Of a DNA stretch of 64,000 bases, positions 40,030-59,400 are shown piece by piece. Source of the stretch: Candidatus Omnitrophota bacterium. GTDB taxonomy: Bacteria > Omnitrophota > Gorgyraeia > Zapsychrales > JAHFFX01. A program made the translations under genes and the position numbers. The stretch covers positions 160-64,159 of the forward strand of contig JAHFFW010000002.1 of NCBI GenBank assembly GCA_023247725.1, written 5' to 3'. The first letter of the stretch is position 1. Each line of letters begins with the position of its first letter. The notes beneath the pieces are model-generated. The model saw only the letters and a list, made by a program, of their open reading frames with translations, did no database searches and had not been told where the DNA came from.

Positions 40030-40032
40030 GTC

Positions 40033-40386
40033 TTGGCTATCCTCAATCTTACCCGCAACACCATCCTCAGTACAAAAGTAACGATTGCTCAGACAACCTC
40101 TCAACGGATGCAAGGGCTGCTTGGTCGTAAATCCATGGGGCTTGATGAGGCCTTAGTCATTTTCCACTGCCAAGCCATCCACATGTTTTTTATGAATTTT
40201 TCAATCGACGTGATTTTTGTGGGTAAGGAAAATCGGGTGGTTGGATTGGTGGAAAATATTCAGCCGTTTCATCTAAGCCCTATTTTTTGGCGTGCCGATA
40301 AAGCCATCGAAGTAGCCCCGGGCACAATCAAGTCGTCTTTAACCTCTCTTTTTGATCTTCTCGTCATCGAAGGTCAAGCCAACTAA
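40033..40386 (+). CDS. DUF192 family protein
   Basis: 117 aa; starts 4 nt after the ATPase gene. Confidence 0.55.
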   Translation: MAILNLTRNTILSTKVTIAQTTSQRMQGLLGRKSMGLDEALVIFHCQAIHMFFMNFSIDVIFVGKENRVVGLVENIQPFHLSPIFWRADKAIEVAPGTIKSSLTSLFDLLVIEGQAN

Positions 40387-43667: not shown

Positions 43668-44015
43668 ATGTTTAGAAAATTGATGCGAATTAAAAAAGGA
43701 CAGACGACCGCCGAATATGCGCTGCTGATCGCATTGGTTGTGGCGGCGATTATTGCCATGCAGACATATGCCCAACGGACCTTGCAAGGCAGGATCCGGG
43801 ATGCTTCACAGTATCTCGTTAATGGGACTAGTGAGTTGGGAAACACGACTCATTATGAACCTTATTATCTGCAGACCGACTACGGCATCAGACGCAATGT
43901 GACGGACAATACCCGGTTAGGACTTAACCAGGTCGCCTATGACGAGGTTTCCAACCGCGTCAGGGAAACCTCGGGTTTTCAGTCGTCCGAGTATAGAGGG
44001 ATCAATGCCGAATAA
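43668..44015 (+). CDS. Flp/TadE-like pilin
   Basis: KKGQTTAEYALLIALVVAAIIAM prepilin motif; 115 aa. Confidence 0.6.
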   Translation: MFRKLMRIKKGQTTAEYALLIALVVAAIIAMQTYAQRTLQGRIRDASQYLVNGTSELGNTTHYEPYYLQTDYGIRRNVTDNTRLGLNQVAYDEVSNRVRETSGFQSSEYRGINAE

Positions 44016-44063
44016 TTCCCTGGTACGATTTTCAACTGTCATTTGTGATAAGGAGGACATTAA

Positions 44064-44390
44064 ATGTTCAAATACATAAGGAAGATTAAAGGGCAGAGCA
44101 CTCTCGAGTTCGCCATTTTAATCGTCATTATTATCGGTGCACTGTTGGCCATTCAGGTCTACATTAAAAGAGGGATTCAGGGCCGGTTGCGCAGTGCCGC
44201 CGATGATATCGGTGATCAATTCTCCCCAGGAAATACCAATTACACGAAAACCACCGTGACGAAAAGCAGCACAAAAGACACCTTCAAGAGCGGTGTTACC
44301 AACTCTTCGTTGCGGTCGGACGAAACAACCGATGTTTCTATGAATCAGAACATCAATAACACCGAGCAGGAATTCTGGGGTGGCAGGTAA
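44064..44390 (+). CDS. Flp/TadE-like pilin
   Basis: KIKGQSTLEFAILIVIIIGALLAI; 108 aa. Confidence 0.6.
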   Translation: MFKYIRKIKGQSTLEFAILIVIIIGALLAIQVYIKRGIQGRLRSAADDIGDQFSPGNTNYTKTTVTKSSTKDTFKSGVTNSSLRSDETTDVSMNQNINNTEQEFWGGR

Positions 44391-44411
44391 TCCGAATGGC
44401 GCAAATCCAAC

Positions 44412-44447
44412 ATGGCTTACTCGAGAGATTTTTCTCGGGTAAGCCAT
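44412..44447 (+). terminator. intra-operon hairpin (attenuator/terminator) after the fourth pilin gene
   Basis: atggcttactcgaga-gatttt-tctcgggtaagccat: a 15-bp stem with one mismatch. Confidence 0.4.
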
Positions 44448-44505
44448 GTTTCATTATGGCACATAATTTTTAGAGGACTAGGTAGGATTCAACTTTATCA
44501 AAAAA

Positions 44506-44864
44506 TGGACCCGGTCAAAAAAACCAAAAAGGCGCAAATCATCGGTGAATATGCCGTTACTTTTTTTGTCGTGACCAGCGTCATTATTGCCATGTCTGTT
44601 TTTATGATTCGGGTGTTTCAGGCCCGGATCTTCGATGCCCGGCGCTATATGGTCAACACCGTCAAGAGTGCTCCGCACATCGGAAAAATCAGATTAGAGT
44701 ATGAGCCCTATTATACGAATACCGACACCTTGACCGACCGGACAAGCTCGGAGGAAAAAAGTCTTCTCGAAGGAGGCCATACCGGAATCTTTCGAAAAGT
44801 TTGGGATGATCATACCGCGGCGCAAACCACGAGCGAACAGCGACCACCCAAAGATGCTGATTAA
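44506..44864 (+). CDS. Flp/TadE-like pilin
   Basis: Start moved to the Met of MDPVKKTKKAQIIGEYAVTFFVVTSVIIAM (listed ORF starts at 44412, inside the hairpin). Confidence 0.5.
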
Positions 44865-44891
44865 GTGTGATCAGTAAAGTGCGGTGGAACA

Positions 44892-45236
44892 ATGCGAAGA
44901 CATCTCCAGAAACAAAATCAAGCGCAAAACCTTTCCGAGTACGTCATTGTTCTCGGACTGGTGACGGCGGTGTTTTTTGCCCTAGGGCCACTTTTTCGCC
45001 GGGGCACTCAGGCAGTGATTAAACTAACGGCTGATCAGATCGGAAATCAGGTCAATGCAGAACAGCGAGTGACTCCTCGAAGCGGTTATTTGGAAAGTTT
45101 ATATACAACGACTCGATCTGCGCAAAATAATAATACGAACGAATCTTTAGGCGTTCTGACCTATACTTACGGTGAATCGGAAGGCGCCTCATCGGATTCG
45201 ATGGTGAATCTGGGTTTCACAAACAGGTACGAATGA
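44892..45236 (+). CDS. Flp/TadE-like pilin
   Basis: NQAQNLSEYVIVLGLVTAVFFAL; 114 aa. Confidence 0.5.
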   Translation: MRRHLQKQNQAQNLSEYVIVLGLVTAVFFALGPLFRRGTQAVIKLTADQIGNQVNAEQRVTPRSGYLESLYTTTRSAQNNNTNESLGVLTYTYGESEGASSDSMVNLGFTNRYE

Positions 45237-45544
45237 TGTTGAAAAATAAAGGTCAATCAACCCTGGAGTATGTCGTCCTTATCATTGTGGTCATGGGAGC
45301 GCTCATTGCGACGAGTGATTATGTGAAACGGGCCATTCAAGGACGTTGGAAAACCTCCGTCGACGATTTGGGGGACCAATACGATCCGGCGTACGCCAAC
45401 TCAACGATCACTCATGCAACAAACGGCACCTCCATTACCAGTATCACCACCATCAATGCGACTGGCGGTTTTTGGACGAAACGACTGGATTCCTCTAATA
45501 TGGAAGAGTCCAAGGCGGGATTTACGGCGATCGGGGCCTATTGA
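45233..45544 (+). CDS. Flp/TadE-like pilin
   Basis: MMLKNKGQSTLEYVVLIIVVMGALIA; start overlaps the previous stop. Confidence 0.6.
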   Translation: MMLKNKGQSTLEYVVLIIVVMGALIATSDYVKRAIQGRWKTSVDDLGDQYDPAYANSTITHATNGTSITSITTINATGGFWTKRLDSSNMEESKAGFTAIGAY

Positions 45545-45718: not shown

Positions 45719-47353
45719 ATGGGGAACAAAAATAGAATACAATTTTCGGAAAAGGCCCAGACGGCCATGGAACTGGCCGTTTTCGGAAGTATTTTCGTTT
45801 TCATTTTGGGAGCCATGATCCGAGCCTCGGTTAACAATAGTTTCACCCAAAACGAATACTTAAGAGCCCTGCGCCTGGCGATGCAAAGGTCCTTCGAGTC
45901 TTCGACGAGCAGTTTTGATGATAATACGGGTGACATGTCCCGCGCCACCGCCAGTTTGGCTTTTATCGAAGACCGCACCTCTCCTGATGCCAACAAATAT
46001 GGGTCTTTGACGCGCAATCCTTATGTAGTCAGCGTCTCTGCCTCTTTTTCCAAGAATCTTTTTAAGACGATGGATTATGGGGACAAGCCAGATCTCCCCA
46101 TCGAAGACATGTTCATTAATGGACAGCATTTTACATTTTCGATTGCGGGTTATCGTTGGTATATTGTTGCCCAAAGCAATTCGCAACCCAACGCCGCAAA
46201 ATATACAGATCCACTCGGGACCTCGGTTTGGGTTCCCATTCCCCCCAACAGTCCTTTCGGTCCCGGGGTTAGTGATTGGAGTAACGGCTGTGGAAAATTA
46301 GGAGCCGCCTCGGCGGATGGCGGATGTCGCCGTTTTTATGTGCTGGTGGCCAATGGACGGACCGCCGTCAGCAGTTCTGAACCCAGTAGTACACAGCCGG
46401 CATTTTGTTCGGCCGATCCCTGCCAATGCGCCGGGGGGTCTTGTGACACGACGTGCCAGAACCGAAAAAATAACTGTGAAGCGGGGTGTCCTCCGGCCGG
46501 AGATCTTTATCGAGCCACCTGTCTTTTTGGTTGTCAGTTGGGAATGGCTGTTTGTGTGCAATATAACCCCAACAATGATTTGACCGCGGCTCAACGCTTT
46601 GATTTGAACAGGGACGGCATTGTGGATGTGACTGATCCCGGGTTGCGTTCCCTCTTTTCCTGGCAATGGAATACGGTTTATGCCAATACGATTGAAATCA
46701 ATCTGGAAGTGGGCGACAATACTACGGTCGATGTCGACGGGGATCTGAAAGAAGAGCAGATCCTGGAGATGATTGATAATGCCGGACGGATTTATAAGCC
46801 CGATGATGAAGCCAATGGAAAAAGCAAAGCAAAGATCAAGGCTCCGATTCGAGCGGTCAAGGTCCTGGATTTTAATCAAGGGGACTTTGATATGAGCGAT
46901 CCACCGGGACAGGCCGATCCTCCGGTCGGTCCCGGACCCTTAAACCCTCCCCCTCCCCGTTCTGGATTAAAAGAAGAAATGATCATGTACACCTATACAA
47001 GGGAAGGGACGTATTTGCAAATTCGCGAGGGCAAGCTTTTTAATCCCGAGAGCGAAACCACGGTTCGCAGTTGGCAGAAACGCGATCAGGTGGATGTGAT
47101 CGAGCGGCAGATTCAGTTAAGCACGGACACGGGGCGTTTTTGTGAAAATGATCCCGGTTGGGAACAAAATCCGGTGAAAAGACACACAGGGCGTCCTAGT
47201 GCTACTAACCCGGCGGTGGAGGCCTGTAACGACTGTTACAGTGCGGCCAATATTTATAAAACCTGTTTTGACGAAACCTCGCTTATGCTTTATGTCCGCA
47301 GCCGGATTCAAGATCGTCGGGGCCGTCACTGGATTACGGATGTTTCGCCATGA
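45719..47353 (+). CDS. large pilin-like protein with Cys-rich region and dockerin/TSP3-like Ca-binding loop
   Basis: 544 aa; N-terminal SEKAQTAMELAVFGSIFVFILGAMI prepilin-like segment; Cys cluster (CSADPCQCAGGSCDTTCQNRKNNCEAGCPPAGDLYRATCLFGCQLGMAVC); DLNRDGIVDVTD loop (46601-46636). Confidence 0.6.
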   Translation: MGNKNRIQFSEKAQTAMELAVFGSIFVFILGAMIRASVNNSFTQNEYLRALRLAMQRSFESSTSSFDDNTGDMSRATASLAFIEDRTSPDANKYGSLTRNPYVVSVSASFSKNLFKTMDYGDKPDLPIEDMFINGQHFTFSIAGYRWYIVAQSNSQPNAAKYTDPLGTSVWVPIPPNSPFGPGVSDWSNGCGKLGAASADGGCRRFYVLVANGRTAVSSSEPSSTQPAFCSADPCQCAGGSCDTTCQNRKNNCEAGCPPAGDLYRATCLFGCQLGMAVCVQYNPNNDLTAAQRFDLNRDGIVDVTDPGLRSLFSWQWNTVYANTIEINLEVGDNTTVDVDGDLKEEQILEMIDNAGRIYKPDDEANGKSKAKIKAPIRAVKVLDFNQGDFDMSDPPGQADPPVGPGPLNPPPPRSGLKEEMIMYTYTREGTYLQIREGKLFNPESETTVRSWQKRDQVDVIERQIQLSTDTGRFCENDPGWEQNPVKRHTGRPSATNPAVEACNDCYSAANIYKTCFDETSLMLYVRSRIQDRRGRHWITDVSP

Positions 47354-47709
47354 AAATGAAACGATGGCTAGCGACAAAATCGGTTCCTCTCACCCCGGGG
47401 GTGAGAGTGCCCTTCTCTCACCCCCGGGGTGAGAGGGTGGCTCGAAGGCGGCCACGGTCAGCCCAGGTCACCATTGAATTTGCTTTTTGCTTGATCATTG
47501 TGGCGGTCCTGGTCTATGGTTTAGTCCGGGCTTTCCGTTGGGCCGGATTGGATCTGGCCGAGCGAAGGGCCAAGGCCGATGAGTCCATTATGGCGCCGAT
47601 TGATGAAGATTGGCAACCTCCGGATAAGTTCAAAACTGGTCCGCCGGCGCAGCTGAAGACCACTTATTACCGAACGAATAAAATGGGCCTGGTTTTCAAT
47701 AATTGGTAA
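47350..47709 (+). CDS. tadE: TadE-like pseudopilin
   Basis: RSAQVTIEFAFCLIIVAVLVYGL is a TadE/TadG-type N-terminal motif. The ATG at 47350 overlaps the upstream stop, and an alternative GTG start lies at 47437, just after two palindromes. Confidence 0.55.
   Translation: MKMKRWLATKSVPLTPGVRVPFSHPRGERVARRRPRSAQVTIEFAFCLIIVAVLVYGLVRAFRWAGLDLAERRAKADESIMAPIDEDWQPPDKFKTGPPAQLKTTYYRTNKMGLVFNNW
47387..47435. repeat. two tandem copies of a 21-nt palindrome
   Basis: ctctcaccccgggggtgagag (47387-47407) and ctctcacccccggggtgagag (47415-47435), 7-nt spacer; inside the leader-coding part of the tadE-like ORF. Confidence 0.6.
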
Positions 47710-47711
47710 TC

Positions 47712-47749
47712 CTTCTACGCCCCAATGTTTTCACGTTGGGGCGTAGAAG
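47712..47749 (+). terminator. strong hairpin between the tadE-like and giant tadG-like genes
   Basis: cttctacgccccaa-tgttttcacg-ttggggcgtagaag: a perfect 14-bp stem beginning 3 nt after the stop. Confidence 0.45.
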
Positions 47750-47812
47750 AACCGTTCCTTCGAAGCTCAAACGCCCTGCTCACGGCGGGGCGAAGGAGAA
47801 TAGGAGAGCGAT

Positions 47813-50800
47813 TTGATTCGTTTTCTCCATAAGATTTTTGCAAAATTTTCCCGCACCAAACTCCGTTCCGGAGGGCAGGTGGCCGTGATCCTCATCTTGA
47901 TTACGGCCATTGCCCTTATTCTTTACGCCGTGGTTTTAAATCTGGGCCGAATTTCCACCCACAAAACCCTCGTCACGATGGCTTCTTCCGTCGGCACGAG
48001 TTTCCTTGCCTCGGAAATGGCCAGTTACGCCGAGTCCATGTACCAGGTTCAATTGGGCGGAGAAAAGGGAGCGAAGGATGATACCAGCGTTTGTGCCTTC
48101 ACCGGTTGGTTTGCTGCCCTCATCAAGGTTGCTCTGGTGGTTGCGGCCCTGGTCATCATCATTGTTACGCACGGATCAGGTTGGATGATTGCGATGGCCA
48201 TCATTGGTTTGGTCGTGGCTGGCATTGGTGCTTTTATGCAGATCGCCTTTATCCAGCCCGGGATCACCAAACTCTGGAACAAACAGATGGCCGATATGTC
48301 CGAGCCGGATAATTTTGTCGAGTCGGGCATTCGCACCGCCTTGCAGGCCGTCGTGACGGACAACGAATATGTCCCGGATGTCTATGATCAGGATCTGGAT
48401 CGAAAAACCTTTGCCGCCGACGGAGATAAGATCAACCGTTTTGCGTATTATTACACGGACCGGTTGAGCCGGCACCCTAGTAACGATCCCCGGGTTGCCC
48501 GCGAATTTCAAAAAGATTTGCGCCGGCTTTTGATCACCCTGTATCTTCCGGCCGATTGCTCCGATCCCAGCAACCCGAGTGCCCATCCCTGCTGTTTTGA
48601 TCCGGCCAATAATTGGAAAGTTTTGCCGTCCTATTGCAATCAATGCTGTGTCTTTAGTGATCTGGACACTCGGATTGATCCCAACACAGGAACCTTTGTC
48701 AAAGACGAATTTGGCCGGCGGCTTTACAAAAATACTGCCCGGCCGCAGTGTTGTTATGATCCTTTGAACGAGCCCGGCGGAGCCGGGACTCGCGCCGCCC
48801 CTGACACTTATTATTGCGGCACAACCGAGACTTGTGGAAACTTGAACGGAAATGACAAGGATCCTTTTAATGCCGCAACGCACCCGGTTGCGGCTGATCC
48901 CAATGATTTGCGTTGGATTTATGATCCTTTTTGGGAAGATGAACGCAATTTTAACGTTTTATCCATGCGAGCCCGGATCGGCCGTGATGATGAAACCAAG
49001 ACCTATCGATTACCCTTTAAAGGAGGATACGATTTTCCGCCGACGATGACGCCGGATGCCCTGGGTGTTTCTCCCGGAGATATGTGGCGATTAAATGATA
49101 CCAAATATTGGGACTTAACGACTCCCATTACGACGGAGCTTCCCGACCTTAATATATTTCCCTTTCTGTACCGGTTGACCTGGGGAGTGGACCTGCGCGA
49201 TCGAACGGTATACGATGCAGAAATGACGCCCAATACCTGGCCCGTTGGGGAGCCGGAGAAGTGCCATTGGTACAATATGAATCAGTTTTTCGGTGGGGCC
49301 CCGTGTCCGCCTCCTTACAGTGACGATCCTGTGACTATGAACACCGCCGACCTGAAGGGTAATCTTCCCCTCGGGTATCCAGTTCAATTGTATCTTTCCC
49401 TTGACCCGGCGACCCTGACTTATACCAAGGCCGGGTGGGTGGAGGGGCTCGGCCAGGGCATGTGTCAGGGCTCCGCATGCGTTTCCGACAAAATTCTGAA
49501 TATCCCTGGTCTAATAACCAAGAACGATGATTGCGCTTTGGATGATGCGGCTCACCGAGATTGTGACCACGCCCTCGATCCTCCCTGGGATTGCATTCAA
49601 TATTATTCCTGGAAGCCCGGCGCGGATCGGTATTGCAATTTGAACTGGCCATACTTTGCGCGATGCGCCAAATATGGAGTTTGTTGTTTTGGCGATAGCG
49701 AGGTCGAATGTGACTGCGGCGATGGCGTTGGCGGCCCTAATTCTGCCCTGGTGGCCAGTTGTTCCGACGAAGTGCCCGGGAAATTAAGGTATATCAGTGC
49801 GCCGGACCCAGGCGATGCGTGGGCAGACGATCCGTTGGATGAATTTATTTATGGTTCCGGTGAATTTATCGCCTGGGCCAAGGCCATCGTTGAGAGTTCT
49901 CCTCAGAATTTAAACGAGAATCTGAGAAATTGGTACAGCGAAGCGGCGACCTGGATTGAACCGGGGTGTCCTCGTCCGCCTTGTTCCAGCGGTTTTGTGA
50001 ACCAATTGAATCCCGGCGCCTTGTTTCGATGGATTGATCAGTTTGATTCTTATCAAAGGAATCTGGCATTTTGGTTGGGAATGGAACGCCGCGCCGGTAG
50101 CCGTGACGAACTAGGTGATCTTTGCAACGAGGTCTGGTGTGTTCCCGGAAATCCGGATGGCAGCGTCGGAGACCCCACCGGAAAGGAGCTGCGCGATATT
50201 TGTGATGCGGCCTCCTGCCCCGCGATTTGTCCCGGCGTCAAAAAAGGAGGAACCGAAACCCTTCTGGGAGTGATCACCGACTACGTCGGAGAAGGCGCTC
50301 CGCGGCCGACGGGAAGTTTTTTTGGCGTCGATGCAGAGGGACTTCCCGCAGTGGGCAATCCCACCGGCGTGATCAATTGTTTGAATTTCAATGCCCTCGA
50401 CGGCGATGTGATTGATCCTTATACGGATCCATTTACCGGCCAAATTTTTTCCGATGCCAATGATCCTGCCAATGCCCTTTCGGGAAATTCCGCTAAATTC
50501 GTGCGGGCCTGGGAAACCTGCGATGAGACGACCACACTCATGCTGCCGCGCTCCTTGCTTCATCCCGACCGGAATTTTGACACCAATGAATTCGTGCCTC
50601 CGCATCATCCGAAAAAAAGGGTTGATCTCGGAGTCAATGGCCAGTATAGCGATCCGGAGTTTTTCAAAAAATGTTTGGACGATTGCAATCCGGGACCAGG
50701 TAGTGGAGACTGGGGGAAGTATTGTGAGCCAGCGACTGAGTATGGGGAGCCCACGCCTTTCCGCGGACCAGCGAAGGCAACGATTCCCACGTACCCGGTC

Positions 50801-52987
50801 TTTGATGCCCCTCACGTTATACCGGATTGGGATAAGGCTTTAGCGTTGGAGGCTTGCAGGCAGAATGCAGGGCCGGATTCATGCGGGGTTAAATATACCA
50901 CGTGTGCGAACAACGAAGCTCAATGCGAGCTCGATGTGCAGAATTGCAATAACTGCCTTACAGGCACCATCCCTCCAGGCTGTGATCTTCAAAGGACCCA
51001 ATGTAACAGTAATTGCACCCGGTGCTGGAATACCGCTTACGTACCCTGCTATAACAGCTGCAATACGAGCTGTACAAATTTTCCTTGCCCAAGTGATCCG
51101 TCATGCTCAACACCAAATCCGGCGTATTGTTGTGATCCAGCTAATTATTATAAGCCTTACCCCGATTGCTCGACATATTGCGCTCAGGGCTGCTCCTGTA
51201 ATCCCGGATACTCGAACTGCTCTGACTATTGTCAGGCATTCTACATTAGCTGCTTTTCAGGATGTACGGGGGGGTGTTCTCCAAGTCTTTGGGCTGGCTG
51301 TGCAAATAGAAAGGCTGGGGGAAGCTGTGATGGCAGTCCACCTCATTCTTGCGCGTGTAATGAACAAGCGTGCCGCGATCAGGCCCAATGTACCATCACG
51401 GTGGGCAGTTATACCGCCAATAAAGACTGCGATGATATTGTGATGAGGACTTGCCCCTGCACCGGCACTTATGAAACCTGTGCAGCCCTATGTCCTGACA
51501 AAGCCGCCTGCGAGGCAGCCTGTCTTGATATCGCTATTGATTCCTCCGTGGAATTGCCCGGCGTGCAATTACGGCCAGGCTTTCAACCCGACCCGGTTTG
51601 TTTAAAAAACTGCCGCGATATAAATAAAACCTGTCTGAATAATTGTCGAACTACATATCAAGACTGCATGGCAACAGATTCGGCCCTTCCCGGCCTTCCA
51701 TCGGGAGGATTCGTCGACTGCGCTTGCGGTGATGCCTATTGTTCCTTTGGCTGTAGTGACTGCCCGCCGGCGGGTGGTCCTAACTGTCAGTTGCAACAGG
51801 AAATCGATAATGCCTATGGAAGCTGTCTTCAGTGGGGTGACGGCAATCCCTTTTATGAGATGGTCTGGCGCTCGTGGATTTTGTCCCAGGGTGACTGCGT
51901 GGAGCAGGAACCTCAGCTGGCGTCACCCGACGGAGATGGGTTCTCACGTTGGGATTTTGATCCGCTCATTTATGACAGCTATCGCGAAGCCATCAGCCAA
52001 GTCGAAAAGTTCAAACACCGGGCAAAGTTTCTTCAAAAAGTGGATTTAGGGGCACGCAAGGTACTCCCCATGGCCGGACGCATCATGGATGAGTTCAAGA
52101 TGTTTGTCTACGGGCCGGATTTGAATTTTTCCATTAATGGGACGGTGGACAGCGGCGTGGAAAAATTGATTTGCCAGCGAAAAAGCCTGGAAGGGAGACT
52201 CACGCCCGGACAATGCGCCTGCGAAGTGATGGAAGACGGATCAACCCAGTGCGGCACCTTCTTCGGCAACGCCGGCGGCGGGACCGAATTGCCCTATCAT
52301 GTTGTTTATGGCTGGCAAAGCGAACGCCAGCCCGGAAAGGCGCGCGGGACCTGGCACTTTGTGCGCGTGGACGCCAAAATTCCCGGGCGCTGCAAGGGCC
52401 AATGCTATACCGATCGGGCGGCCGCCGAACAAAAAGCTGGAGTTCCCGTTGAGGAATTGGAGCCAGGATTTCCGATTGTCAAGTCCTATACCCGTCATTG
52501 GGGAACCCGGCGCTGCTATTCTCTCGGCGACAGTTTTGATAAGGTCAATACCTGCGACGATGAAGGAAAATATGACGATGCGAAGCAGTGCTTCCAAGGC
52601 GGGGTGGTTATGACCCAGGTTGTTCGTTATGATGAAGATGCGGATCTGTTGTTCAAATTTGCCAACAATTTCAATATTTGGAAGGCAAAATTTTTCCATC
52701 CCCAGGTGGGCCCGCCGATGGGATCGTTGGATAATTTGGAGAGCATCTGTCCTCCGCTCACGGACCCCGCCATCGGCGGCAATCCACCCATCGTCCAGAA
52801 AGGGGCTTTTATGCTGAATCGTGTCAGTGACAATGAGGCTTGTTGGAATACGGTTAAGTCCTATTTGAAGCGCGGCGTGGCCTCCAAAACGTGCGCCCAA
52901 TATTACTTCCATAATGAAACCCCGCGCGGGATGAATCTCAAATTTATTCCCTGTCCGGGGAGAATCACGGTTGATGACGTGAATTAA
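47813..52987 (+). CDS. giant TadG-like pilin-fusion protein with extremely cysteine-rich extracellular region
   Basis: 1724 aa; N-terminal TadE/TadG-type segment (RSGGQVAVILILITAIALILYAVVLNLG) plus further TM helices, then about 1500 aa with well over 150 Cys in CxxC/CxC/CC arrays (e.g. CNNCLTGTIPPGCDLQRTQCNSNCTRCWNTAYVPCYNSCNTSCTNFPC...). The long antisense ORFs in this region are artefacts of its GC-rich codon usage. Confidence 0.7.
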   Translation: MIRFLHKIFAKFSRTKLRSGGQVAVILILITAIALILYAVVLNLGRISTHKTLVTMASSVGTSFLASEMASYAESMYQVQLGGEKGAKDDTSVCAFTGWFAALIKVALVVAALVIIIVTHGSGWMIAMAIIGLVVAGIGAFMQIAFIQPGITKLWNKQMADMSEPDNFVESGIRTALQAVVTDNEYVPDVYDQDLDRKTFAADGDKINRFAYYYTDRLSRHPSNDPRVAREFQKDLRRLLITLYLPADCSDPSNPSAHPCCFDPANNWKVLPSYCNQCCVFSDLDTRIDPNTGTFVKDEFGRRLYKNTARPQCCYDPLNEPGGAGTRAAPDTYYCGTTETCGNLNGNDKDPFNAATHPVAADPNDLRWIYDPFWEDERNFNVLSMRARIGRDDETKTYRLPFKGGYDFPPTMTPDALGVSPGDMWRLNDTKYWDLTTPITTELPDLNIFPFLYRLTWGVDLRDRTVYDAEMTPNTWPVGEPEKCHWYNMNQFFGGAPCPPPYSDDPVTMNTADLKGNLPLGYPVQLYLSLDPATLTYTKAGWVEGLGQGMCQGSACVSDKILNIPGLITKNDDCALDDAAHRDCDHALDPPWDCIQYYSWKPGADRYCNLNWPYFARCAKYGVCCFGDSEVECDCGDGVGGPNSALVASCSDEVPGKLRYISAPDPGDAWADDPLDEFIYGSGEFIAWAKAIVESSPQNLNENLRNWYSEAATWIEPGCPRPPCSSGFVNQLNPGALFRWIDQFDSYQRNLAFWLGMERRAGSRDELGDLCNEVWCVPGNPDGSVGDPTGKELRDICDAASCPAICPGVKKGGTETLLGVITDYVGEGAPRPTGSFFGVDAEGLPAVGNPTGVINCLNFNALDGDVIDPYTDPFTGQIFSDANDPANALSGNSAKFVRAWETCDETTTLMLPRSLLHPDRNFDTNEFVPPHHPKKRVDLGVNGQYSDPEFFKKCLDDCNPGPGSGDWGKYCEPATEYGEPTPFRGPAKATIPTYPVFDAPHVIPDWDKALALEACRQNAGPDSCGVKYTTCANNEAQCELDVQNCNNCLTGTIPPGCDLQRTQCNSNCTRCWNTAYVPCYNSCNTSCTNFPCPSDPSCSTPNPAYCCDPANYYKPYPDCSTYCAQGCSCNPGYSNCSDYCQAFYISCFSGCTGGCSPSLWAGCANRKAGGSCDGSPPHSCACNEQACRDQAQCTITVGSYTANKDCDDIVMRTCPCTGTYETCAALCPDKAACEAACLDIAIDSSVELPGVQLRPGFQPDPVCLKNCRDINKTCLNNCRTTYQDCMATDSALPGLPSGGFVDCACGDAYCSFGCSDCPPAGGPNCQLQQEIDNAYGSCLQWGDGNPFYEMVWRSWILSQGDCVEQEPQLASPDGDGFSRWDFDPLIYDSYREAISQVEKFKHRAKFLQKVDLGARKVLPMAGRIMDEFKMFVYGPDLNFSINGTVDSGVEKLICQRKSLEGRLTPGQCACEVMEDGSTQCGTFFGNAGGGTELPYHVVYGWQSERQPGKARGTWHFVRVDAKIPGRCKGQCYTDRAAAEQKAGVPVEELEPGFPIVKSYTRHWGTRRCYSLGDSFDKVNTCDDEGKYDDAKQCFQGGVVMTQVVRYDEDADLLFKFANNFNIWKAKFFHPQVGPPMGSLDNLESICPPLTDPAIGGNPPIVQKGAFMLNRVSDNEACWNTVKSYLKRGVASKTCAQYYFHNETPRGMNLKFIPCPGRITVDDVN

Positions 52988-53003
52988 AAAGCGAAAAGGT
53001 TGA

Positions 53004-53345
53004 ATGTCATTCGCAAGATTTCTTATGAAACGATTTGATTTTTTAACGAAAGGCGCTTCAACACTTGAATATGCCACGATGATCGTGGTCCTTATTGCGG
53101 TTATGTTGATCATGCAGAAGTATGTCTGGCAGGCGATCTCGGGTCGCTGGAGGGCGGCCGGTGATTCCTTTGGTTTTGGCCGGCAATACCTGCCCTCCAG
53201 AACAAAGGAATACGCCGTTTTTATGGTGAGCCCCGATCCGTCGAAAGATTTTTGGTACGATACGAATTGTGCGGAAAAAGCGGGTTGCTTGCCGGGAAAT
53301 CAAACGTGTTTTCAAGGATGTCTGAGCACCGTGACGCTCCCTTAG
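53004..53345 (+). CDS. Flp/TadE-like pilin with C-terminal Cys pairs
   Basis: KGASTLEYATMIVVLIAVMLIM prepilin motif; C-terminal CAEKAGCLPGNQTCFQGC. Confidence 0.55.
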   Translation: MSFARFLMKRFDFLTKGASTLEYATMIVVLIAVMLIMQKYVWQAISGRWRAAGDSFGFGRQYLPSRTKEYAVFMVSPDPSKDFWYDTNCAEKAGCLPGNQTCFQGCLSTVTLP

Positions 53346-53369
53346 TACAATGGAAAGAAAGGATAATGC

Positions 53370-54227
53370 ATGATTTTTATTATTATCGGAATGGTCTTTG
53401 GCGCCGTCGGGGTTCTTTGTTATGCGGCGGTTCCATTATTTTTGAATACCACGGTCGCCATTAGTCAGAGGCGGTCCCAAACGTTTGCCAATAAAATGCA
53501 GCGCGTGGTGATGAAGTCCGAAATTCAACGGATGTCGCAATTTTATGTGATCGCGCCGGTTCTGTTTGGCGCTCTTGGCTATTTTGTTTTACCTCCGGAG
53601 TTGAGGGTGATCGGTGTCGTGGTCGGCATCGTGCTCGGGTTCGTGGGCCCGAGCATCTACATCAAATTTTTGGTCAGACGCCGGAAGGATAAATTTAATC
53701 ACCAGCTCATCGATGCCTTGATGATCATGTCAAGTTCCTTTCGCGGGGGATTGAGTTTGATTCAGGCCATGGAGGCCGTCGTCGAGGAAATGCCCGACCC
53801 CATCAGCCAGGAAATTGGCACAGTTCTGAACGAAAATAAAATGGGTGTGTCTCTGGAAGAGGCCTTGAACCATTTGTATGAACGCATCCCTTCCCCGGCC
53901 CTGCAACAAACGATCACGGCCATTCTTTTGGCGAGGGAAACCGGGGGTAATCTGCCGGTTATTTTTTCCCGCATCGTCAATTCCATCCGGGAACACAATA
54001 AAATTCAGCAAAATATTGACACCTTGACTTTACAGGGAAAGATTCAGGGCTCGGTGATGAGTCTGTTGCCCATTGGTTTCGCTTTTATCGTTTATTCAAC
54101 TAACCCGAAATTTTTTGACAGCATGGTGAATACAGAAATGGGACGCATGCTCCTTGTCTATGCGGCGTTTTCGGAGTGCATCGGCGCTTACTTGATCTGG
54201 AAGATCAGTACGTTTAAGGATTTTTAA
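53370..54227 (+). CDS. tadB: Flp pilus assembly inner-membrane protein TadB
   Basis: 285 aa; T2SS-F domain (…ALMIMSSSFRGGLSLIQAMEAV…); polytopic membrane protein. Confidence 0.8.
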   Translation: MIFIIIGMVFGAVGVLCYAAVPLFLNTTVAISQRRSQTFANKMQRVVMKSEIQRMSQFYVIAPVLFGALGYFVLPPELRVIGVVVGIVLGFVGPSIYIKFLVRRRKDKFNHQLIDALMIMSSSFRGGLSLIQAMEAVVEEMPDPISQEIGTVLNENKMGVSLEEALNHLYERIPSPALQQTITAILLARETGGNLPVIFSRIVNSIREHNKIQQNIDTLTLQGKIQGSVMSLLPIGFAFIVYSTNPKFFDSMVNTEMGRMLLVYAAFSECIGAYLIWKISTFKDF

Positions 54228-54306
54228 TGAGCGCATAAGTTACGCGACTGCTAAGGAGCGTAACTTAGCGCGCGAATTAATCCCCGAAGGGGATAATGAA
54301 AAGGGA

Positions 54307-55203
54307 TTGACTATGATAACCGTCATTTTAATGATGATCTTCTTGTCCGTTTTCAGCTTTATCCTGGGTGTGGCGCCGGTGGATTGGGAGAATCGGCCGC
54401 GGCTGCATTTGTTTGGCGAGGAAATGATCCAGGCGAAACGAAAGAAAAGTCCTTTAACGCCAGTTCTAAGTTTGACGCGCAAGATCGCGCTCATTAACAA
54501 ACCCTTCACCATCGGGCATCTGGGTAAGAGGATTAGCCGGGATCTGGCCATGGCCAGGGTCAACCTCACTCCAGAAGAGTTCTTCTTTATTAAGGAAGTG
54601 ACGATCATCGGAACATTGGCTTTATCTTACCCTTACGTTGAACCGGATATGCTGGTGTTCTGGGTTCTCATTGGAATCGCCTTCGGGTATATGTTGCCCG
54701 AGTTTTGGTTAAAGGGAAAGATCAAGAAGGTCAGAAATACCATTGTTAAGGAATTGCCGGATTCCATCGATCTTTTGACACTGTGCGTTAATGCGGGATT
54801 AGATTTCATGTTGGCCCTCAAGTGGGTCGTGGAAAAATCACCGCCTTCGGTCATGATCAGTGAATTCAACACACTGATGCAAGAAATTAATCTGGGCAAA
54901 ACCCGTCGAGACGCCATCCGAGATCTTGCCACCAAATATGAATTGCCAGATTTATCCACCTTGGCCCGCACCCTCATTCAGGCGGATAAAATGGGAACAT
55001 CCGTAGCGGAGGCCTTAAATATTCTTTCCGAAGATATGCGGCTGGCCCGATTCCGTCGAGGCGAGCAATTGGCCTTGAAGGCCCCCCTTAAGATGCTTGT
55101 GCCTTTGCTGCTTTTTATTTTCCCGGTTGTGGGAGTTCTCGTCGCCGGGCCCATCTTTCTCGATTTTATTCAAAATAATCCTCTGCAAGGTCTCGCGCAG
55201 TAA
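54307..55203 (+). CDS. tadC: Flp pilus assembly inner-membrane protein TadC
   Basis: 298 aa; T2SS-F domain (…LPDSIDLLTLCVNAGLDFMLALKWV…). Confidence 0.8.
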   Translation: MTMITVILMMIFLSVFSFILGVAPVDWENRPRLHLFGEEMIQAKRKKSPLTPVLSLTRKIALINKPFTIGHLGKRISRDLAMARVNLTPEEFFFIKEVTIIGTLALSYPYVEPDMLVFWVLIGIAFGYMLPEFWLKGKIKKVRNTIVKELPDSIDLLTLCVNAGLDFMLALKWVVEKSPPSVMISEFNTLMQEINLGKTRRDAIRDLATKYELPDLSTLARTLIQADKMGTSVAEALNILSEDMRLARFRRGEQLALKAPLKMLVPLLLFIFPVVGVLVAGPIFLDFIQNNPLQGLAQ

Positions 55204-56172: not shown

Positions 56173-56490
56173 TTCACTGCATCGCCCGAGGGATCTCTTT
56201 CGAAGGGCATTTCCGACGGGAAAAATGAGAAACCCTCCTCTTTAATTCAAAAGGCTTTTTGAATTCCAACTGTTTTACCAAGCTCATACAAAATTGAATC
56301 GACCCCATCAAAACAACCAGCCGCTTCACTTAATTTTTGATAATACTAATACTACTTTAATTGACTGTTTGTTTTCGATGGGGAATTTGATTCGCAGCTG
56401 GCTCATCCTCCGAGCCTCAATGGTTTTTTGTCCTTACCGAATAGAGCCCGTATAGTCCAATTTAGATTGGACAATAATGGGATTAGGTGG

Positions 56491-59400
56491 ATGGATAACA
56501 GAATGGACAAAAAAGATCCTGCGATCGCTGAAGATGGCGAAAGTATCGAAAGTCCTATTAATGATTATATTGGACAATTAGATATCCATCTTAGCAAAGA
56601 GCGCAAGCGCTTCAAAAGCCGCTTTAAACAATGGATTCGAAATGTGGCTTTTGTGGTGGTCTTCGTTTTTACTCCGGAGCAGATCAGCTGGGCATTCAAT
56701 TACGACCCCACGGTTTTATGGCGCGATAAATTCGCTCACCAAGCCCAGGTTGCTTCCTCTGTGGCCTCTGCCGAAGAAATCTCCTCTGCCAATATTGCTG
56801 CCAGCGTTGAGCAGCTTCTCAACCAAATCGCCTACAAAGAAAAATCCCGCATCCAATTAAAGATCACCAATTCCGCCATCGCCAATTCCGAACTCAACAC
56901 TCGTGATCTGGCCATTGACTCGAATGTCTTTTTTACCAAAAACCGCATTAAAGAGATCTATGATTGGTTAAAAAGTCCCGACATCCATCCGCTTAATTGC
57001 GGTATTTATGCCCTTCGCGATATCCTTTCGAGCCACCAAATTGAAATTTCCCTCGAAGAGCTCTCCGTTGCGACCTTGATGGTCGATCTCATGAATAATA
57101 TCGTCCGTCCCGGCGAGGAAAAACTCAAGACCTCGCTTTACGCGATTAATAAAGTCGTCGATGCCTATGGACTGAATCTTGAGCCTTTTAAATTGGATCC
57201 CAAAAATGTTCTTAAAGTCAAGCCACCCTTCATTGCCAATTTTGGATCTGAACACTTTGTGACGGTCACTCGCTTCGAAGGCAATACAGTTTATTTTATG
57301 GACATTGGCCGTTCCATGTCTTTGCCTCAAGACGAGTTTGTTTCCCAGCTGAGCGGCTTTATCCTGGCGGCAGAACCCACCGACTTGGGAATCGCTTATG
57401 AGCCGGTTCCCGACCAGATGATGGCCTTCATCTGGGGCAATCGCTGGCACAGCCGGCACCATCTGCTTCCTGGCCTTATCAGCGGCAAATCACTGGCCAT
57501 CAGCACGGCCATCAATGTGGGCATGATGTTTGGCGGTGCCTGGCTTGGCTCTGTCACGATGGGAAAAAACTTTACCACTCTTTTAGAGATTGCTATGACG
57601 CTTGGACAGGGAGCAAGCATTCTTGGCGAAAGCGTCGCCACCATGTGTGTCATGGCGGGCAAGTGTAGTGCGAAGACTGCCTTTTTGCTCAATATGGGAA
57701 TCAGTGCCGGTATAACGATGGGCGTCAGTGCCATGGCTTCGGCGGGAGCCTTTGGGCCCTATAGCAATCCGACAAGTTCCGTCAGTGCCCTGACCCAGAT
57801 TAACGCCCTTCTCGATAAACTTGGTATCGTGGGAGACGTGATCCAGCACATTGCCGGGGGTTTCAGCCACATTGCTAAAATTTTTGGAAGATTTTTTGGT
57901 ATCGGTCAAGGAAGGATTTTTGCTCAAAGTCCTTTCGGTTCATTTTTACAAAATATGGGGATGATCGGGCCTCATCAAACTTTTGTTGGGCAAATATTAG
58001 AAGGGGTCGCCAAAGGGATAGGCTGGGGCTTTAAACAATTGGCCAAGGTCTTTGGCTATAAAGAAAAACCAGCGCCTTCGGTTGACCCGACCGCGACAGT
58101 TGATCCTACGGCCGTATTGGAAAAAGGAGTGGTCGTCAAAGCCGGGGCCGTCGTGGAATCCGATGTTGTTTTAAAATCCGGGGCGGTCGTCGAAGCCGGT
58201 GCCATTATCAAAACGGGAAGCGTAGTTGGATCTGGAGCCCATATTGGCGAACACGCGATGATCGGAGCTAATTCACAGATTGGCGCCAATGCAACTATTG
58301 CAACCGATGCCATCGTAGGAGCACACGCCGTGATCGAAAAAGGCGCTACTGTTATGGCAGGCGCGACGGTGAGAGCGCAGGCCCGAGTTTTAGCGGGCGC
58401 GACCGTCGGGGGGGGCGAAAACGTGCCCATGGGAGCAATATTTACCGGCGAAGTGGCCGAGAAAGTTGCCAATGTTGCCCAGATTAGTGTGGTCCAGGCC
58501 TTGGGTCGATTTGGCGTTGGGTTTACCAAGGGTTTTGCCTTGGGGGTTGGGGTGGGCTATGTTGAGTATGAAATCGCCCAGATGATCCAAGATGCCCTGG
58601 GGGAAGATGCAAACCCCATTATCGTTCAGACCATCCTCACGATTGGAACCTCGGTTGGCGGCGCTCTGGCGATGACGGCGATCACGCATTTTGCGGATAA
58701 GGCGTTCCATGTGGGTTACGGAAAATTGACCGGCGACGATAAAGCGAAGGCAAAGGCAACAGAGGCGGCTGAACAAAAGGCCATGCGAGCTACATATGTT
58801 TATCAGTCTAGTGAGTCTAATTTGGAAGACCCTAATGATGTTTTTGGCAAAGCGATACTCAAAATGGAGAGGGATGAATTCGTGTTCCAAAAGGAGTTCA
58901 GCAAAGTCAATTCCCAATTTAGTTTCATCGGTCAGTTGTTCGCGGCCTTTAAGGGTGAATTGCCTAATATTGTTGGTCAATTGAGCGGCATGGCTATTCG
59001 TCTTTTGGCTTATCGATTAGCCGGCGGAAAAAATGCGAAGAAAAATATTGCGGATGCGGATACGAATTTTTCCCAGGCCCTGGGCCAGATCGGCAACACC
59101 ATCGGTTCCTTGGGATATTCTGGGTTGAGTCCCGCAGCCCGTCGGCAGATGCAAGAAAAACAACAAACATCGTGGGGACGTTTGCTTCTTCGACGACTCA
59201 CGCAGGGCGCCCTTGCTGCAGCCCTGTATCTTGGCCTGGACAAAATTGAAGATGGGTTAATTAGAAATCAAGGTTTTTCGGGGCTGGGCCCAGGGATGGA
59301 TGCCTTGGAGGTCCGGGCATTGTTGTTTTTGGGGTCAGCGGTTGTGGTTGGCTTTTCTAAGGCCTTGACCCTGAAGCTGGTGGGATATTTTCCCGTTATA

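Follow-up and report, generated by a model that had tools for sequence, protein, structure and literature searches.

An unannotated family of large, cysteine-rich, TadG-like proteins encoded in Tad pilus loci of Omnitrophota

Omnitrophota are abundant, uncultured and ultra-small bacteria that are thought to be predators or parasites. The stretch of DNA analysed here, called the window below, is 64,000 nucleotides long and belongs to a contig of one such organism (JAHFFW010000002.1). It carries a Tad-like locus, with the following genes:

32589-33593, + strand: 334-aa pilin-like protein with 38 cysteines (11.4%), of the same functional class as the TadG-like protein and not homologous to it
33686-40386, + strand: Tad machinery, namely PPIase, RcpC/CpaB, secretin with TonB_C domains, TadZ-TadA fusion and DUF192
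43668-45544, + strand: five cysteine-free Flp-type pilin genes with a class III signal peptide, G/A|QxxxE[Y/F]
45719-47353, + strand: 544-aa pilin-like partner with a KA|QTAMEL motif and 16 cysteines, a candidate TadF/KilL analogue (from its motif and from synteny in 16 loci)
47350-47709, + strand: 119-aa TadE-like pseudopilin, SA|QVTIEF (weak PF07811 TadE match, E=0.059, and synteny)
47813-52987, + strand: TadG-like cysteine-rich gene, 1,724 aa, 102 cysteines
53004-53345, + strand: 113-aa pilin-like protein, KG|ASTLEY, with 4 cysteines (8-12 in homologues)
53370-55203, + strand: TadB and TadC platform proteins (T2SSF domains)
56365 onward: giant gene 3' of the cassette, at least 2,545 aa

Sixteen Omnitrophota loci share one fixed gene order, from cysteine-free Flp pilins through a pilin-like gene of about 430-709 aa, a TadE-like gene of about 80-140 aa, the TadG-like gene and a cysteine-rich pilin-like gene of about 110-160 aa to TadB and TadC. 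Giant genes consistently follow the cassette, and in loci L002 and L003 their products measure 10,568 and 85,803 aa. Like a tadG, the TadG-like gene lies in a tad/flp locus, beside tadE/tadF-type pseudopilin genes and tadB/tadC. The association with a pilus made in the initial annotation is supported by this strictly conserved place among minor-pilin-like genes.

For Omnitrophota, a conserved T2SS-like locus on the upstream side of the giant genes has been published (bioRxiv 10.1101/2023.11.21.568195; bioRxiv 10.64898/2026.06.07.730766). By the first of these papers and PMC10066038, it is the same locus as the one described here. Its reported content is a PPIase (Rotamase_2), rcpC, secretin, ATPase, genes with class III signal peptides, two GspF-like genes and the giant gene. 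Both papers are silent on this protein and on its family, cysteines and TadG-like role, and the words 'TadG' and 'cysteine' have zero occurrences in them. A search of the literature for usable V. archaeovorus proteome data on the protein returned nothing. A Tad-like locus beside giant genes was known before, and its largest conserved component was previously undescribed.

The gene of 1,724 residues is real. Its TTG start codon has an AGGAG Shine-Dalgarno sequence 6 nt on its 5' side, and the frame is continuous on the + strand from 47813 to 52987, with one terminal stop and none inside. An independent Logan assembly contig (SRR14366766) matches window positions 47412-54250 at 100% over 6,839 bp, without gaps. 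The identical protein is found on NCBI/ENA contigs of 133,935, 81,506 and 8,380 bp. It is also collinear, from N- to C-terminus, with hundreds of homologues, and the N-terminal 'MIRFLxK' is conserved among homologues. The continuous frame, the independent assembly and this collinearity all argue against an artefact (a chimeric contig, a missed stop or a frameshift). In its favour there is only the odd composition and the disagreement among gene callers over the start codon (1,669, 1,702 or 1,724 aa), and its probability is negligible. The results also correct the gene models in public databases, where the chosen start codon cuts off the leader or the first helix. No DNA tandem repeats were found inside the ORF.

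By its sequence matches the protein is a member of a large unannotated family that is exclusively bacterial. An exhaustive HMMER search of clusters at 50% identity gave 821 matches at E<=1e-3, 597 at E<=1e-10 and 380 at E<=1e-30. The size of the family was revealed by this search and not by word-index searches, which with full-family and C-terminal profiles gave the known matches and two fragments only. Searches of Pfam, NCBIfam and PDB with the single sequence had no match, so neither vWA nor any other known TadG, CpaL or GspK domain was found in Pfam or NCBIfam. When a 60-sequence family profile was run against PDB, nothing but helical noise came up (best E=0.16), and no relative among solved structures.

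Homology to the neighbouring proteins of 334, 544, 113, 119 and 645 aa was considered and rejected. Two of these, at 32589-33593 and 45719-47353, had earlier been taken as cysteine-rich pilin fusions that suggest a family. They are not homologous to the TadG-like protein (BLASTP E>0.1, no match to the family HMM) and share only the pilin-type N-terminus, so the three make up a functional class and not a sequence family.

The protein divides into the following segments, all on the + strand:

47813-47875, + strand: basic leader, aa 1-21, ending at invariant Gly21, with a putative prepilin-peptidase site G|Q (G21/Q22 conservation)
47876-47947, + strand: hydrophobic alpha1N-like helix or TM1, aa 22-45, with Ile and not Glu at position +5 (hydropathy; PF13400 in register)
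47948-48094, + strand: amphipathic loop or helix, aa 46-94, ending at conserved juxtamembrane Cys94 (conservation; covariation with Cys1568)
48095-48256, + strand: conserved hydrophobic helical hairpin TM2-TM3, aa 95-148 (hydropathy)
48257-50557, + strand: conserved ectodomain body, aa 149-915, with about 17 conserved cysteines (alignments, conserved cysteine columns)
50558-51994, + strand: hypervariable cysteine-dense insert, aa 916-1394, 479 aa with 55 cysteines (11.5%) (spacing statistics, family comparison)
51995-52984, + strand: conserved C-terminal region, aa 1395-1724, a long helix and a beta-rich domain with 7 conserved cysteines (alignments; secondary structure from a low-confidence model)
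52514-52516, + strand: Cys1568, the predicted partner of Cys94 (covariation)

The leader, KLRSGG|QVAVILILITAIALILYAVVLNLG, fits the type IV pilin-like pattern: it is short and basic, ends on Gly/Ala and is followed by a hydrophobic helix of some 20 residues. G21 and Q22 are invariant or near-invariant in the family alignments, and the G|Q motif is present in 122 of the 150 members listed. The nine other pilin-like genes of the window share the leader junction. Cleavage would be expected at G21|Q22; a prepilin peptidase gene was found neither in the window nor in the ±10 kb flanks of related loci. All the remaining pilin-like genes in this locus carry [G/A]|Q-x3-E, whereas mature position +5 is I, V, L or M in 120 of the 122 motif-bearing members, and never Glu. 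Glu5 allows a pilin to dock under another subunit. Tip complexes are capped by a subunit that does not have Glu5, and its absence here fits a cap subunit (PMC10191384).

The initial annotation called this a TadE/TadG-type N-terminus. PF13400 is indeed its best match and in register (aa 21-52 on profile positions 1-31, E=0.11), but the score is 13.3 bits against a cut-off of 22.3, and the family consensus at 12.4 bits also falls below. Only 2 of 22 members match PF13400 at E<=1, and this is still the commonest weak match among them. The label is weakly supported and denotes a resemblance, not membership.

Two further hydrophobic helices, also conserved and located at aa ~95-148, had been overlooked. 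Family-wide there are three conserved hydrophobic segments (in the window copy aa 17-49, 91-136 and 120-151), and the hairpin segment is about 55 aa long with a mean Kyte-Doolittle hydropathy of 1.87 and a median of 2 charged residues. To our knowledge this TM2-TM3 hairpin is not a feature of TadG proteins.

Beyond the hairpin, the body (aa 149-915) is recognizable by the motifs HPCC...CNxCC...RPxCC, WKRGxDRFC...WPY, WIEPG, VWCVP and LPRSL. The segment at 916-1394 is a different matter. Across the family it ranges from 3 to 534 aa and from 0 to 55 cysteines, the window copy having the most, and its length drives total protein length (r=0.82). It has almost no similarity to its counterpart in 165 relatives. 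We regard it as a candidate host-recognition module. AF2 models of aa 1-960 and 941-1724, made from 7-9 alignment rows, have a pLDDT of 32.0 and 37.6, too low for the fold to be read from them.

The protein has 102 cysteines (5.9%), far more than the 0-1.2% in those proteins of the locus that are cytoplasmic, in the outer membrane or of the Flp type. In all 150 family members listed the content is 2.6-6.3%. The initial annotation had put the number at well over 150, in dense CxxC/CxC/CC arrays over about 1,500 residues, which is an overstatement. The cysteines are unevenly spread, with 55 of the 102 within the 479-aa variable segment, and the whole protein has 4 CxxC, 6 CxC and 5 CC. In the dense stretch at aa 1000-1340 (51 cysteines in 341 aa), the enriched nearest-neighbour spacings are Cx3C (13 observed, 4.6 expected, P<0.0005), Cx6C (9 against 2.8, P=0.002) and Cx7C (6 against 2.5). 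CC is depleted, at 1 observed where 7.5 are expected, while CxC (4 against 6.4) and CxxC (3 against 5.4) are not enriched. No repeated module was found in the dense region: the best self-match scores 43, with a shuffle maximum of 36.9±4.7 and a highest shuffle of 49.

The state of these cysteines can be read from the family. Total cysteine number is even in 111 of 134 full-length members (p=5e-15), and the number after TM3 alone is odd in 118 of the 134 (p=2e-20). The control residues W, H, M and Q have even counts in about 50% of members. Cysteines also come and go as pairs: 719-724 (phi 0.85), 313-335 (0.84), 771-802 (0.72), and likewise 484-498. Covariation further links Cys94, a residue retained by 93% of members, to Cys1568 (phi=0.84): in each of the 5 members where one is missing, so is the other. 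In the syntenic loci, the partner minor pilins have mostly even cysteine counts and the Flp pilins have no cysteine.

Even parity, paired gain and loss and a long-range covarying pair are the reasons to read the cysteines as disulfides. It is strongly supported by this family-wide pattern that essentially all of them are bonded, with about 51 bonds in the window copy, the most in the family. The 'disulfide-type' label of the initial annotation was well chosen. The Cys94-Cys1568 bond is predicted to staple the C-terminal domain back onto the N-terminal module, and since Cys94 is paired, the cysteine-rich domain would lie on the extracytoplasmic side of the membrane. Some 51 disulfides in one bacterial protein would imply powerful oxidative folding in a reduced-genome and probably anaerobic organism. 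Dsb, thioredoxin-like and VKOR genes were found neither in the window nor in the ±10 kb flanks of related loci. In all, this defines a family of several hundred members with a testable disulfide map and a candidate host-recognition module. Its architecture is clear: a cap signature of prepilin-like type is followed by the additional hydrophobic hairpin, then by the conserved body with its hypervariable insert, and lastly by the C-terminal domain, which is stapled back.

The initial annotation offered three roles: a pilus-displayed adhesin, a metal or mineral binder, or a mimic of host extracellular matrix. The last two do not fare well. In the second, widened to iron-sulfur binding, stripes of cysteines would coordinate metal ions or clusters instead of forming disulfides. 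The 51 cysteines in 341 aa speak for this, as does Cx3C/Cx6C spacing, which would align thiols on one helical face, and many Omnitrophota are anaerobic (PMC10066038). Even counts and pairwise gain and loss, however, are the signature of disulfides and not of sites with 3-4 ligands. The dense region has no CxxCH (heme) or ferredoxin (CxxCxxCxxxC) motifs and only 2 His, aromatics are common in it (16 Tyr), and CC, CxC and CxxC, unlike in metallothioneins, either fall below chance or do not differ from it. The topology implied by the Cys94 pairing also puts the domain outside the cytoplasm. Metal binding is very improbable on these grounds. Mimicry, by a eukaryotic cysteine-rich module (EGF, TNFR, furin-like) acquired for binding host matrix, is harder still to credit. 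There is a superficial likeness in cysteine density, and 2 of 22 members have a weak RET_CRD match (best E=0.072), but the window protein has no EGF, TNFR, furin-like or other eukaryotic cysteine-rich Pfam match, even at E<=1. The absence of a repeated module counts against it too, and the dense region is a lineage-specific expansion of a segment that is present throughout an exclusively bacterial family.

The pilus-displayed adhesin is the most plausible of the three, with a precedent in the TadG/KilN tips of Myxococcus (PMC12075869). In that predatory bacterium, KilM, KilL and KilN (homologues of TadE, TadF and TadG) form a disulfide-rich tip complex, where the large TadG/KilN subunit is the backbone and its modular C-terminal domain is the extremity that sets prey recognition (PMC12075869). 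In Bdellovibrio, prey invasion requires TadG, which is located at the tip, and a TadZA fusion occurs there too (bioRxiv 10.64898/2026.07.08.737194). Pilus preparations of A. actinomycetemcomitans contained TadG, and a tip position has been predicted for CpaL (PMC12607857). A review assigns TadG to the sub-complex of the cytoplasmic membrane and not to the tip (PMC10191384). The initial annotation held so many cysteines to be unusual for minor pilins. Since published Tad tip complexes were already predicted to be disulfide-rich, this is true only of the scale, about 51 disulfides.

Three known systems can be compared. KilN of the Myxococcus xanthus Kil/Tad system is likewise a large minor-pilin-like protein beside TadE-/TadF-like minor pilins, in a predatory or host-dependent bacterium, with a pilin-type N-terminus, many intramolecular disulfides and a variable module that was proposed as the pilus extremity (PMC12075869); the comparison rests on this published description, not on sequence homology. 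For the present protein, many intramolecular disulfides are indicated by parity, paired cysteines and the Cys94-Cys1568 covariation. It differs from KilN in being 2-4 times larger, with about 51 disulfides, and in having an extra conserved hydrophobic hairpin after alpha1, and its locus adds a fourth small cysteine-rich pilin-like gene.

TadG and CpaL usually have just one hydrophobic helix, at the N-terminus, and after it a soluble domain that is often vWA (see PMC12607857). With TadG (A. actinomycetemcomitans, P. aeruginosa) and CpaL (Caulobacter), the present protein has in common a tad locus, a hydrophobic helix that starts from a conserved Gly, no Glu5, a weak in-register PF13400 similarity, and being the largest pilin-like protein of its system. 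It departs from them in its PF13400 score (13.3 against 22.3 bits), its three hydrophobic segments instead of one, the absence of a vWA/MIDAS match, and an ectodomain that matches no known family or structure. Finally, like GspK/PilK-type caps it is the largest of its minor pilin set and the sole one without Glu5, which fits a filament cap with nothing docked above it (PMC10191384). With no Pfam or NCBIfam match there is no GspK family match either, and all that it has in common with that family is the missing Glu5. The context is moreover Tad (type IVc) and not T2SS or T4aP, and the protein is far larger.

From this we conclude that the protein is probably a large minor-pilin-like subunit of the TadG/KilN class in the Omnitrophota Tad (Flp) pilus, with which these bacteria would grip other cells, and that it is probably the cap or adhesive tip. 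The surrounding genes (RcpC, secretin, TadZA, Flp pilins, TadE-like, TadB and TadC) and the conserved order in 16 loci support a role in the pilus, while the location at the tip and the adhesin function are inferred. A possible mechanism is as follows. The protein would be inserted in the inner membrane by its basic class-III-type leader, its alpha1N-like helix and the extra hairpin. The ectodomain of about 1,570 residues would then fold on the oxidising side, with essentially every cysteine in one of some 51 disulfides. The Cys94-Cys1568 staple would make the polypeptide a large loop, with the hypervariable cysteine-dense insert at its far end. Having a G|Q site and no Glu5, the protein would most likely sit as a cap atop the minor pilins of 544, 119 and 113 aa. 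This cap would prime assembly of the cysteine-free Flp filament and would show its own rigid, disulfide-armoured variable module to the surface of host or prey.

Some observations sit uneasily with a cap or tip. PF13400 scores 12-13 bits where 22.3 are needed, and no vWA or known TadG/CpaL/GspK domain was found. Three membrane helices are unprecedented in a subunit that is to be pulled from the membrane into a filament, and the secretin would have to let through an ectodomain of about 175 kDa that is locked by disulfides. Prepilin peptidase, Dsb and VKOR genes are absent from the window and the flanks of related loci. The AF2 pLDDT values are 32 and 38, and there is no PDB relative.

The three helices could instead anchor a permanent inner-membrane component of the Tad system, with the ectodomain in a periplasmic scaffold or alignment sub-complex that never enters the pilus. 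The conservation of the helices, a staple that binds the C-terminal domain to the membrane module, a review whose table groups TadG with the 'CM sub-complex' (PMC10191384) and the presumed difficulty of secretin passage are all in line with this. But a resident protein would have no need of an invariant G|Q junction of prepilin type, the same one that the pilins of the locus have. Its central segment is hypervariable (3-534 aa), which is typical of surface recognition modules and not of internal scaffolds, its gene is embedded among minor pilin genes, and recent work puts TadG, KilN and CpaL at the tip. We therefore consider a permanent membrane component unlikely, though worth keeping in mind. 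Less likely again is a T2SS-like pseudopilus, whose cap without Glu5 would contact, push out or display the giant protein encoded just downstream. The giant genes do consistently come after the cassette (at least 2,545, 10,568 and 85,803 aa), which was published as a conserved T2SS-like locus (bioRxiv 10.1101/2023.11.21.568195; bioRxiv 10.64898/2026.06.07.730766), and the missing Glu5 resembles tip-complex cap subunits (PMC10191384). Yet the parts are Tad-type and not Gsp-type (RcpC, TadZ-TadA, two TadB/C-like platform proteins, Flp-type pilins), and there is no GspK family match. The giant proteins are described, in the abstract of bioRxiv 10.1101/2023.11.21.568195, with many transmembrane regions and are not obvious soluble T2SS cargo, and the analysis gave no evidence that they co-vary with the TadG-like protein.

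If the TadG-like protein is a cap, its hairpin could have a further use. As with a harpoon, the hairpin might leave the predator membrane with the tip complex and insert in the prey or host membrane, in the manner of a translocator; this is speculative, and we rate it as improbable. Equally improbable is the accompanying idea that the hypervariable disulfide module picks the target and works with the neighbouring giant protein. The family consensus at aa 72-166 has a sub-threshold match to SseC/T3SS translocators (E=4.8e-4, 20.3 bits against a cut-off of 30.2).

The protein of 1,724 aa is encoded in a Tad/Flp pilus locus, and is best classified among the TadG-like minor pilins of Tad pili.

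Genes of the Tad/Flp locus (coordinates or position, strand where assigned, product)
33686-34696: PPIase, opening the Tad operon
34693-35514: RcpC/CpaB
35527-37839 (+): RcpA-like secretin with TonB_C domains
37864-40029 (+): TadZ-TadA fusion, 721 aa
40033-40386: DUF192
40783-42720 (+): 645-aa protein of unassigned function, between DUF192 and the pilin genes
43668-45544: five Cys-free Flp-type pilins with class-III signal peptides
3' of the Flp-type pilins, before the 119-aa gene: 544-aa pilin-like protein
Before the 1,724-aa gene: 119-aa TadE-like protein (PF07811, E=0.059)
47813-52987 (+): 1,724-aa protein
Between the 1,724-aa gene and TadB: 113-aa pilin-like protein
After the 113-aa gene: TadB, TadC
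56365-64000 (+): start of a giant ORF, at least 2,545 aa, after TadC and running past the window end

The gene itself is a single ORF with a TTG start, whose translation has one stop, the terminal one, and no internal stops; the continuous frame of the initial annotation therefore stands. An AGGAG Shine-Dalgarno lies 6 nt 5' of the TTG at 47813, and the N-terminal 'MIRFLxK' is kept in the aligned homologues. For these reasons this is a better start than those of the public gene calls. Logan and ENA have a protein of 1,702 aa that begins at V23, and NCBI has one of 1,669 aa, 55 residues below the TTG ORF, which by length difference puts the start at Met56. These public starts (region 47813-47980) cut off the leader with its G|Q site, or the hydrophobic helix that comes first.

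Logan contig SRR14366766_996493 (6,839 bp) matches 47412-54250 of the window at 100% identity without gaps, and the protein is also found on NCBI/ENA contigs of 133,935, 81,506 and 8,380 bp. No DNA tandem repeats were found within the ORF. Given the continuous frame, the agreement of independent contigs and the lack of tandem repeats, the mis-assembly or missed stop that had been raised as a concern is very unlikely, and the chance that the ORF is an artefact is negligible. The feature is real, but the initial annotation partly mis-described it.

The Tad secretin ends in two TonB C-terminal-type domains (PF03544 and PF13103), which are also present in L001 and L002, two of the related loci that carry homologues of the 1,724-aa gene. 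TadZ (ParA/MinD-like) and TadA (a T2SSE ATPase) form one protein, and this fusion is kept in L002 and in L003, another such locus. The same fusion was recently reported in Bdellovibrio, a predator (bioRxiv 10.64898/2026.07.08.737194). The 645-aa protein has no Pfam or NCBIfam match; its place in L001-L003 is taken by a protein of 555-978 aa without a precomputed Pfam domain. The ORF from 56365 is the beginning of an Omnitrophota 'giant gene', with a Peptidase_C39 domain at aa 211-339 and hexapeptide repeats at aa ~586-681. At the same position, homologous loci encode products of 10,568 aa (L002) and 85,803 aa (L003).

The locus is the 'T2SS-like'/Tad cassette upstream of Omnitrophota giant genes that was reported before, in bioRxiv 10.1101/2023.11.21.568195 and likewise in PMC10066038 and bioRxiv 10.64898/2026.06.07.730766. 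These three sources mention neither TadG nor cysteines.

Homologues of the 1,724-aa gene share the gene order of the window in Omnitrophota MAGs, and these relatives point to an Omnitrophota genome as the source of the window. The synteny in 16 loci consists of a pilin-like gene of ~500 aa with Glu at mature position +5 (Glu5), a TadE-like gene of ~100 aa (Glu5), the homologue itself (no Glu5) and a Cys-rich pilin-like gene of ~120 aa (Glu5). This set parallels the TadE/TadF/TadG and KilM/KilL/KilN sets. Throughout the window and the 16 related loci, the Flp-type (candidate major) pilins all have zero cysteines, and the four minor-pilin-like genes are all Cys-rich, most of their counts being even. 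In the 16 related loci, exactly 8 cysteines is the usual count for the small pilin-like gene downstream of the homologue. Genes for a prepilin peptidase or a thiol-disulfide oxidoreductase were found neither in the window nor in the flanks of related loci.

A perfect 11-bp stem-loop, CTACGCCCCAA-N10-TTGGGGCGTAG, lies at ~47716-47747, within the 103 nt that separate the 1,724-aa gene from the TadE-like gene, and has no T-run after it. It could be an element of mRNA processing, stability or attenuation.

The protein represents a large undescribed Omnitrophota family. As a whole it has no sequence match in Pfam, NCBIfam or the PDB. A word-index search yielded 7 relatives, and a genome scan 18 loci with homologues, nearly all labelled Omnitrophota. 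The MAGs of L006, L007, L011, L019 and L020 are publicly labelled 'Planctomycetales' or 'Planctomycetia' despite their Omnitrophota-type locus, which is probably taxonomic mislabelling. An exhaustive HMMER search over 1.84 billion cluster representatives gave 821 matches with E<=1e-3, of which 597 reach E<=1e-10 and 380 reach E<=1e-30. For the 150 best matches, the median length is 1,252 aa and the median cysteine count 47.5 (3.68%, range 2.64-6.27%); among these and the window copy, 151 sequences, the 1,724-aa protein has the most cysteines.

Architecture of the 1,724-aa protein, from alignments and local sequence analysis of family members
Ending at the invariant Gly21-Gln22: basic leader (alignments)
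aa 22-45: hydrophobic helix
Up to conserved Cys94: amphipathic stretch
aa 95-148: conserved hydrophobic hairpin
aa 149-915: conserved body, ~17 conserved Cys
aa 916-1394: variable segment, 479 aa and 55 Cys in the window copy
aa 1395-1724: conserved C-terminal region, 7 conserved Cys

Family-wide, the hairpin is ~55 aa long, its Kyte-Doolittle hydropathy averages 1.87, and the median number of charged residues in it is 2. The variable segment ranges from 3 to 534 aa and from 0 to 55 cysteines across 134 full-length members, the window copy having the most cysteines, and its length drives total protein length (r=0.82). The window copy of the segment shows no significant internal repeats, and comparison with its counterparts in 165 relatives gave almost no similarity. 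What is unusual in this family is the extreme disulfide content, the extra hydrophobic hairpin and the expandable hypervariable module. Predicted structures of the two protein halves have pLDDT values of 32.0 and 37.6, which are low because the alignments had only 7-9 rows. A 60-sequence family profile found no PDB relative.

Well over 150 cysteines in dense CxxC/CxC/CC arrays had been claimed initially. The count is 102 (5.92%), and the whole protein has only 4 CxxC, 6 CxC and 5 CC. The enrichment nevertheless holds up when set beside the neighbouring gene products: within the locus, cysteine makes up 0-1.2% of the cytoplasmic, outer-membrane and Flp proteins, and the downstream giant ORF has 3 cysteines in its first 2,545 aa (0.12%). 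Across most of the protein there are 0-7 cysteines per 100 aa, and 12-17 at aa 1001-1300.

Within aa 1000-1340, which hold 51 cysteines, nearest-neighbour spacing is non-random. Cx3C (13 observed vs 4.6 expected, P<0.0005) and Cx6C (9 vs 2.8, P=0.002) are over-represented, Cx7C occurs 6 times vs 2.5 expected, and CC is depleted (1 vs 7.5). Cx3C also shows a 2.4-fold enrichment in 21 further members of the family. Such an i/i+4/i+7 periodicity would put the cysteines on one helix face.

The cysteines had also been called disulfide-type, and this is borne out. Counted from Gly21, the total is even in 111 of the 134 full-length members (p=5e-15); counted after TM3 alone, the last of the three hydrophobic helices, it is odd in 118 (p=2e-20). 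For W, H, M and Q, taken as controls, the count is even in 60-65 of the 134. In well-aligned regions, pairs of cysteines are gained or lost together: 719-724 (phi 0.85), 313-335 (0.84) and 771-802 (0.72), and more weakly 484-498 (0.62) and 958-971 (0.61). Cys94, the single cysteine of the membrane module, covaries with Cys1568 of the C-terminal domain (phi 0.84), and the five members lacking one of these lack both. By these three independent signals (parity, paired gain and loss, and this covariation), essentially all of the cysteines are paired, which makes for ~51 disulfides in the window copy.

These family-level signals place the loop that precedes TM2 on the oxidising side of the membrane, together with the large domain, and so set the topology as N-in, TM1 out, TM2 in, TM3 out. 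It follows that the C-terminal domain is stapled to the N-terminal module, and that the variable insert lies farthest out on a large loop.

The other pilin-like genes of the locus all carry [G/A]|Q-x-x-x-E-[Y/F/L]. The 1,724-aa protein shares their G|Q junction; position +5 is I, V, L or M in 120 of 122 motif-carrying family members, and never Glu. PF13400 (TadE/G-like) is the top match of the N-terminus, in register from Gly21 (profile position 1), in keeping with the TadE/TadG-type N-terminus first described, but the score is 13.3 bits vs a cut-off of 22.3. Given that score, and a weak match in just 2 of 22 members (the most frequent one among them), the protein falls outside PF13400, and the resemblance is no more than suggestive. 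The protein lacks a vWA domain, and its extra hydrophobic hairpin is no known feature of TadG.

We think it probable that the protein is a TadG/KilN-class, Glu5-less cap subunit of an Omnitrophota Tad pilus. A rigid, disulfide-armoured ectodomain would then hold out a hypervariable module towards host or prey. The locus, family, disulfide status, topology and variability map come from the analysis itself; we infer that the leader is cleaved and that the protein sits at the tip and works as an adhesin. In Myxococcus, a disulfide-rich tip complex is predicted for TadE/F/G-type proteins, with the large TadG/KilN as backbone and a variable C-terminal module as extremity, and these tips determine prey recognition (PMC12075869). 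A TadG tip protein is required for prey invasion by Bdellovibrio (bioRxiv 10.64898/2026.07.08.737194). Aggregatibacter pilus preparations contained TadG, and CpaL has been modelled at the pilus tip (PMC12607857). Tip complexes have a capping subunit without Glu5 (PMC10191384).

The main rival is a periplasmic scaffold permanently anchored in the inner membrane. The three hydrophobic helices and an older assignment of TadG to a 'CM sub-complex' (PMC10191384) speak for it, but the prepilin junction is invariant and the insert hypervariable, and we regard such a scaffold as rather unlikely. A role as a T2SS-like cap for the giant protein next to it is a slim possibility. Metal or mineral binding, once proposed, is disfavoured by the dense region, where CxxCH and ferredoxin motifs are absent, His occurs only twice, CC, CxC and CxxC are depleted or at chance level, and aromatic residues are present; a metal binder is highly improbable. 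The supposed likeness to eukaryotic extracellular modules did not hold up either, as no EGF, TNFR or similar module was detected in the protein, and mimicry of extracellular matrix is scarcely credible.

The proteins at 32589-33593 and 45719-47353, once suggested to form one family with the 1,724-aa protein, are not homologues of it, and have only the pilin-type N-terminus in common. The former (+ strand) is a pilin-like protein of 334 aa with prepilin motif KA|QTILEY, encoded upstream of the PPIase. With 38 cysteines (11.4%) it is denser than the 1,724-aa protein.

The window also contains a chromosomal origin region at 11353-23482, with parB, parA and yidC (-), followed by dnaA, dnaN, gyrB and gyrA (+). 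It includes an AT-rich stretch (GC 0.34-0.35 at 12-16 kb), and the GC skew switches sign at about 16 kb.
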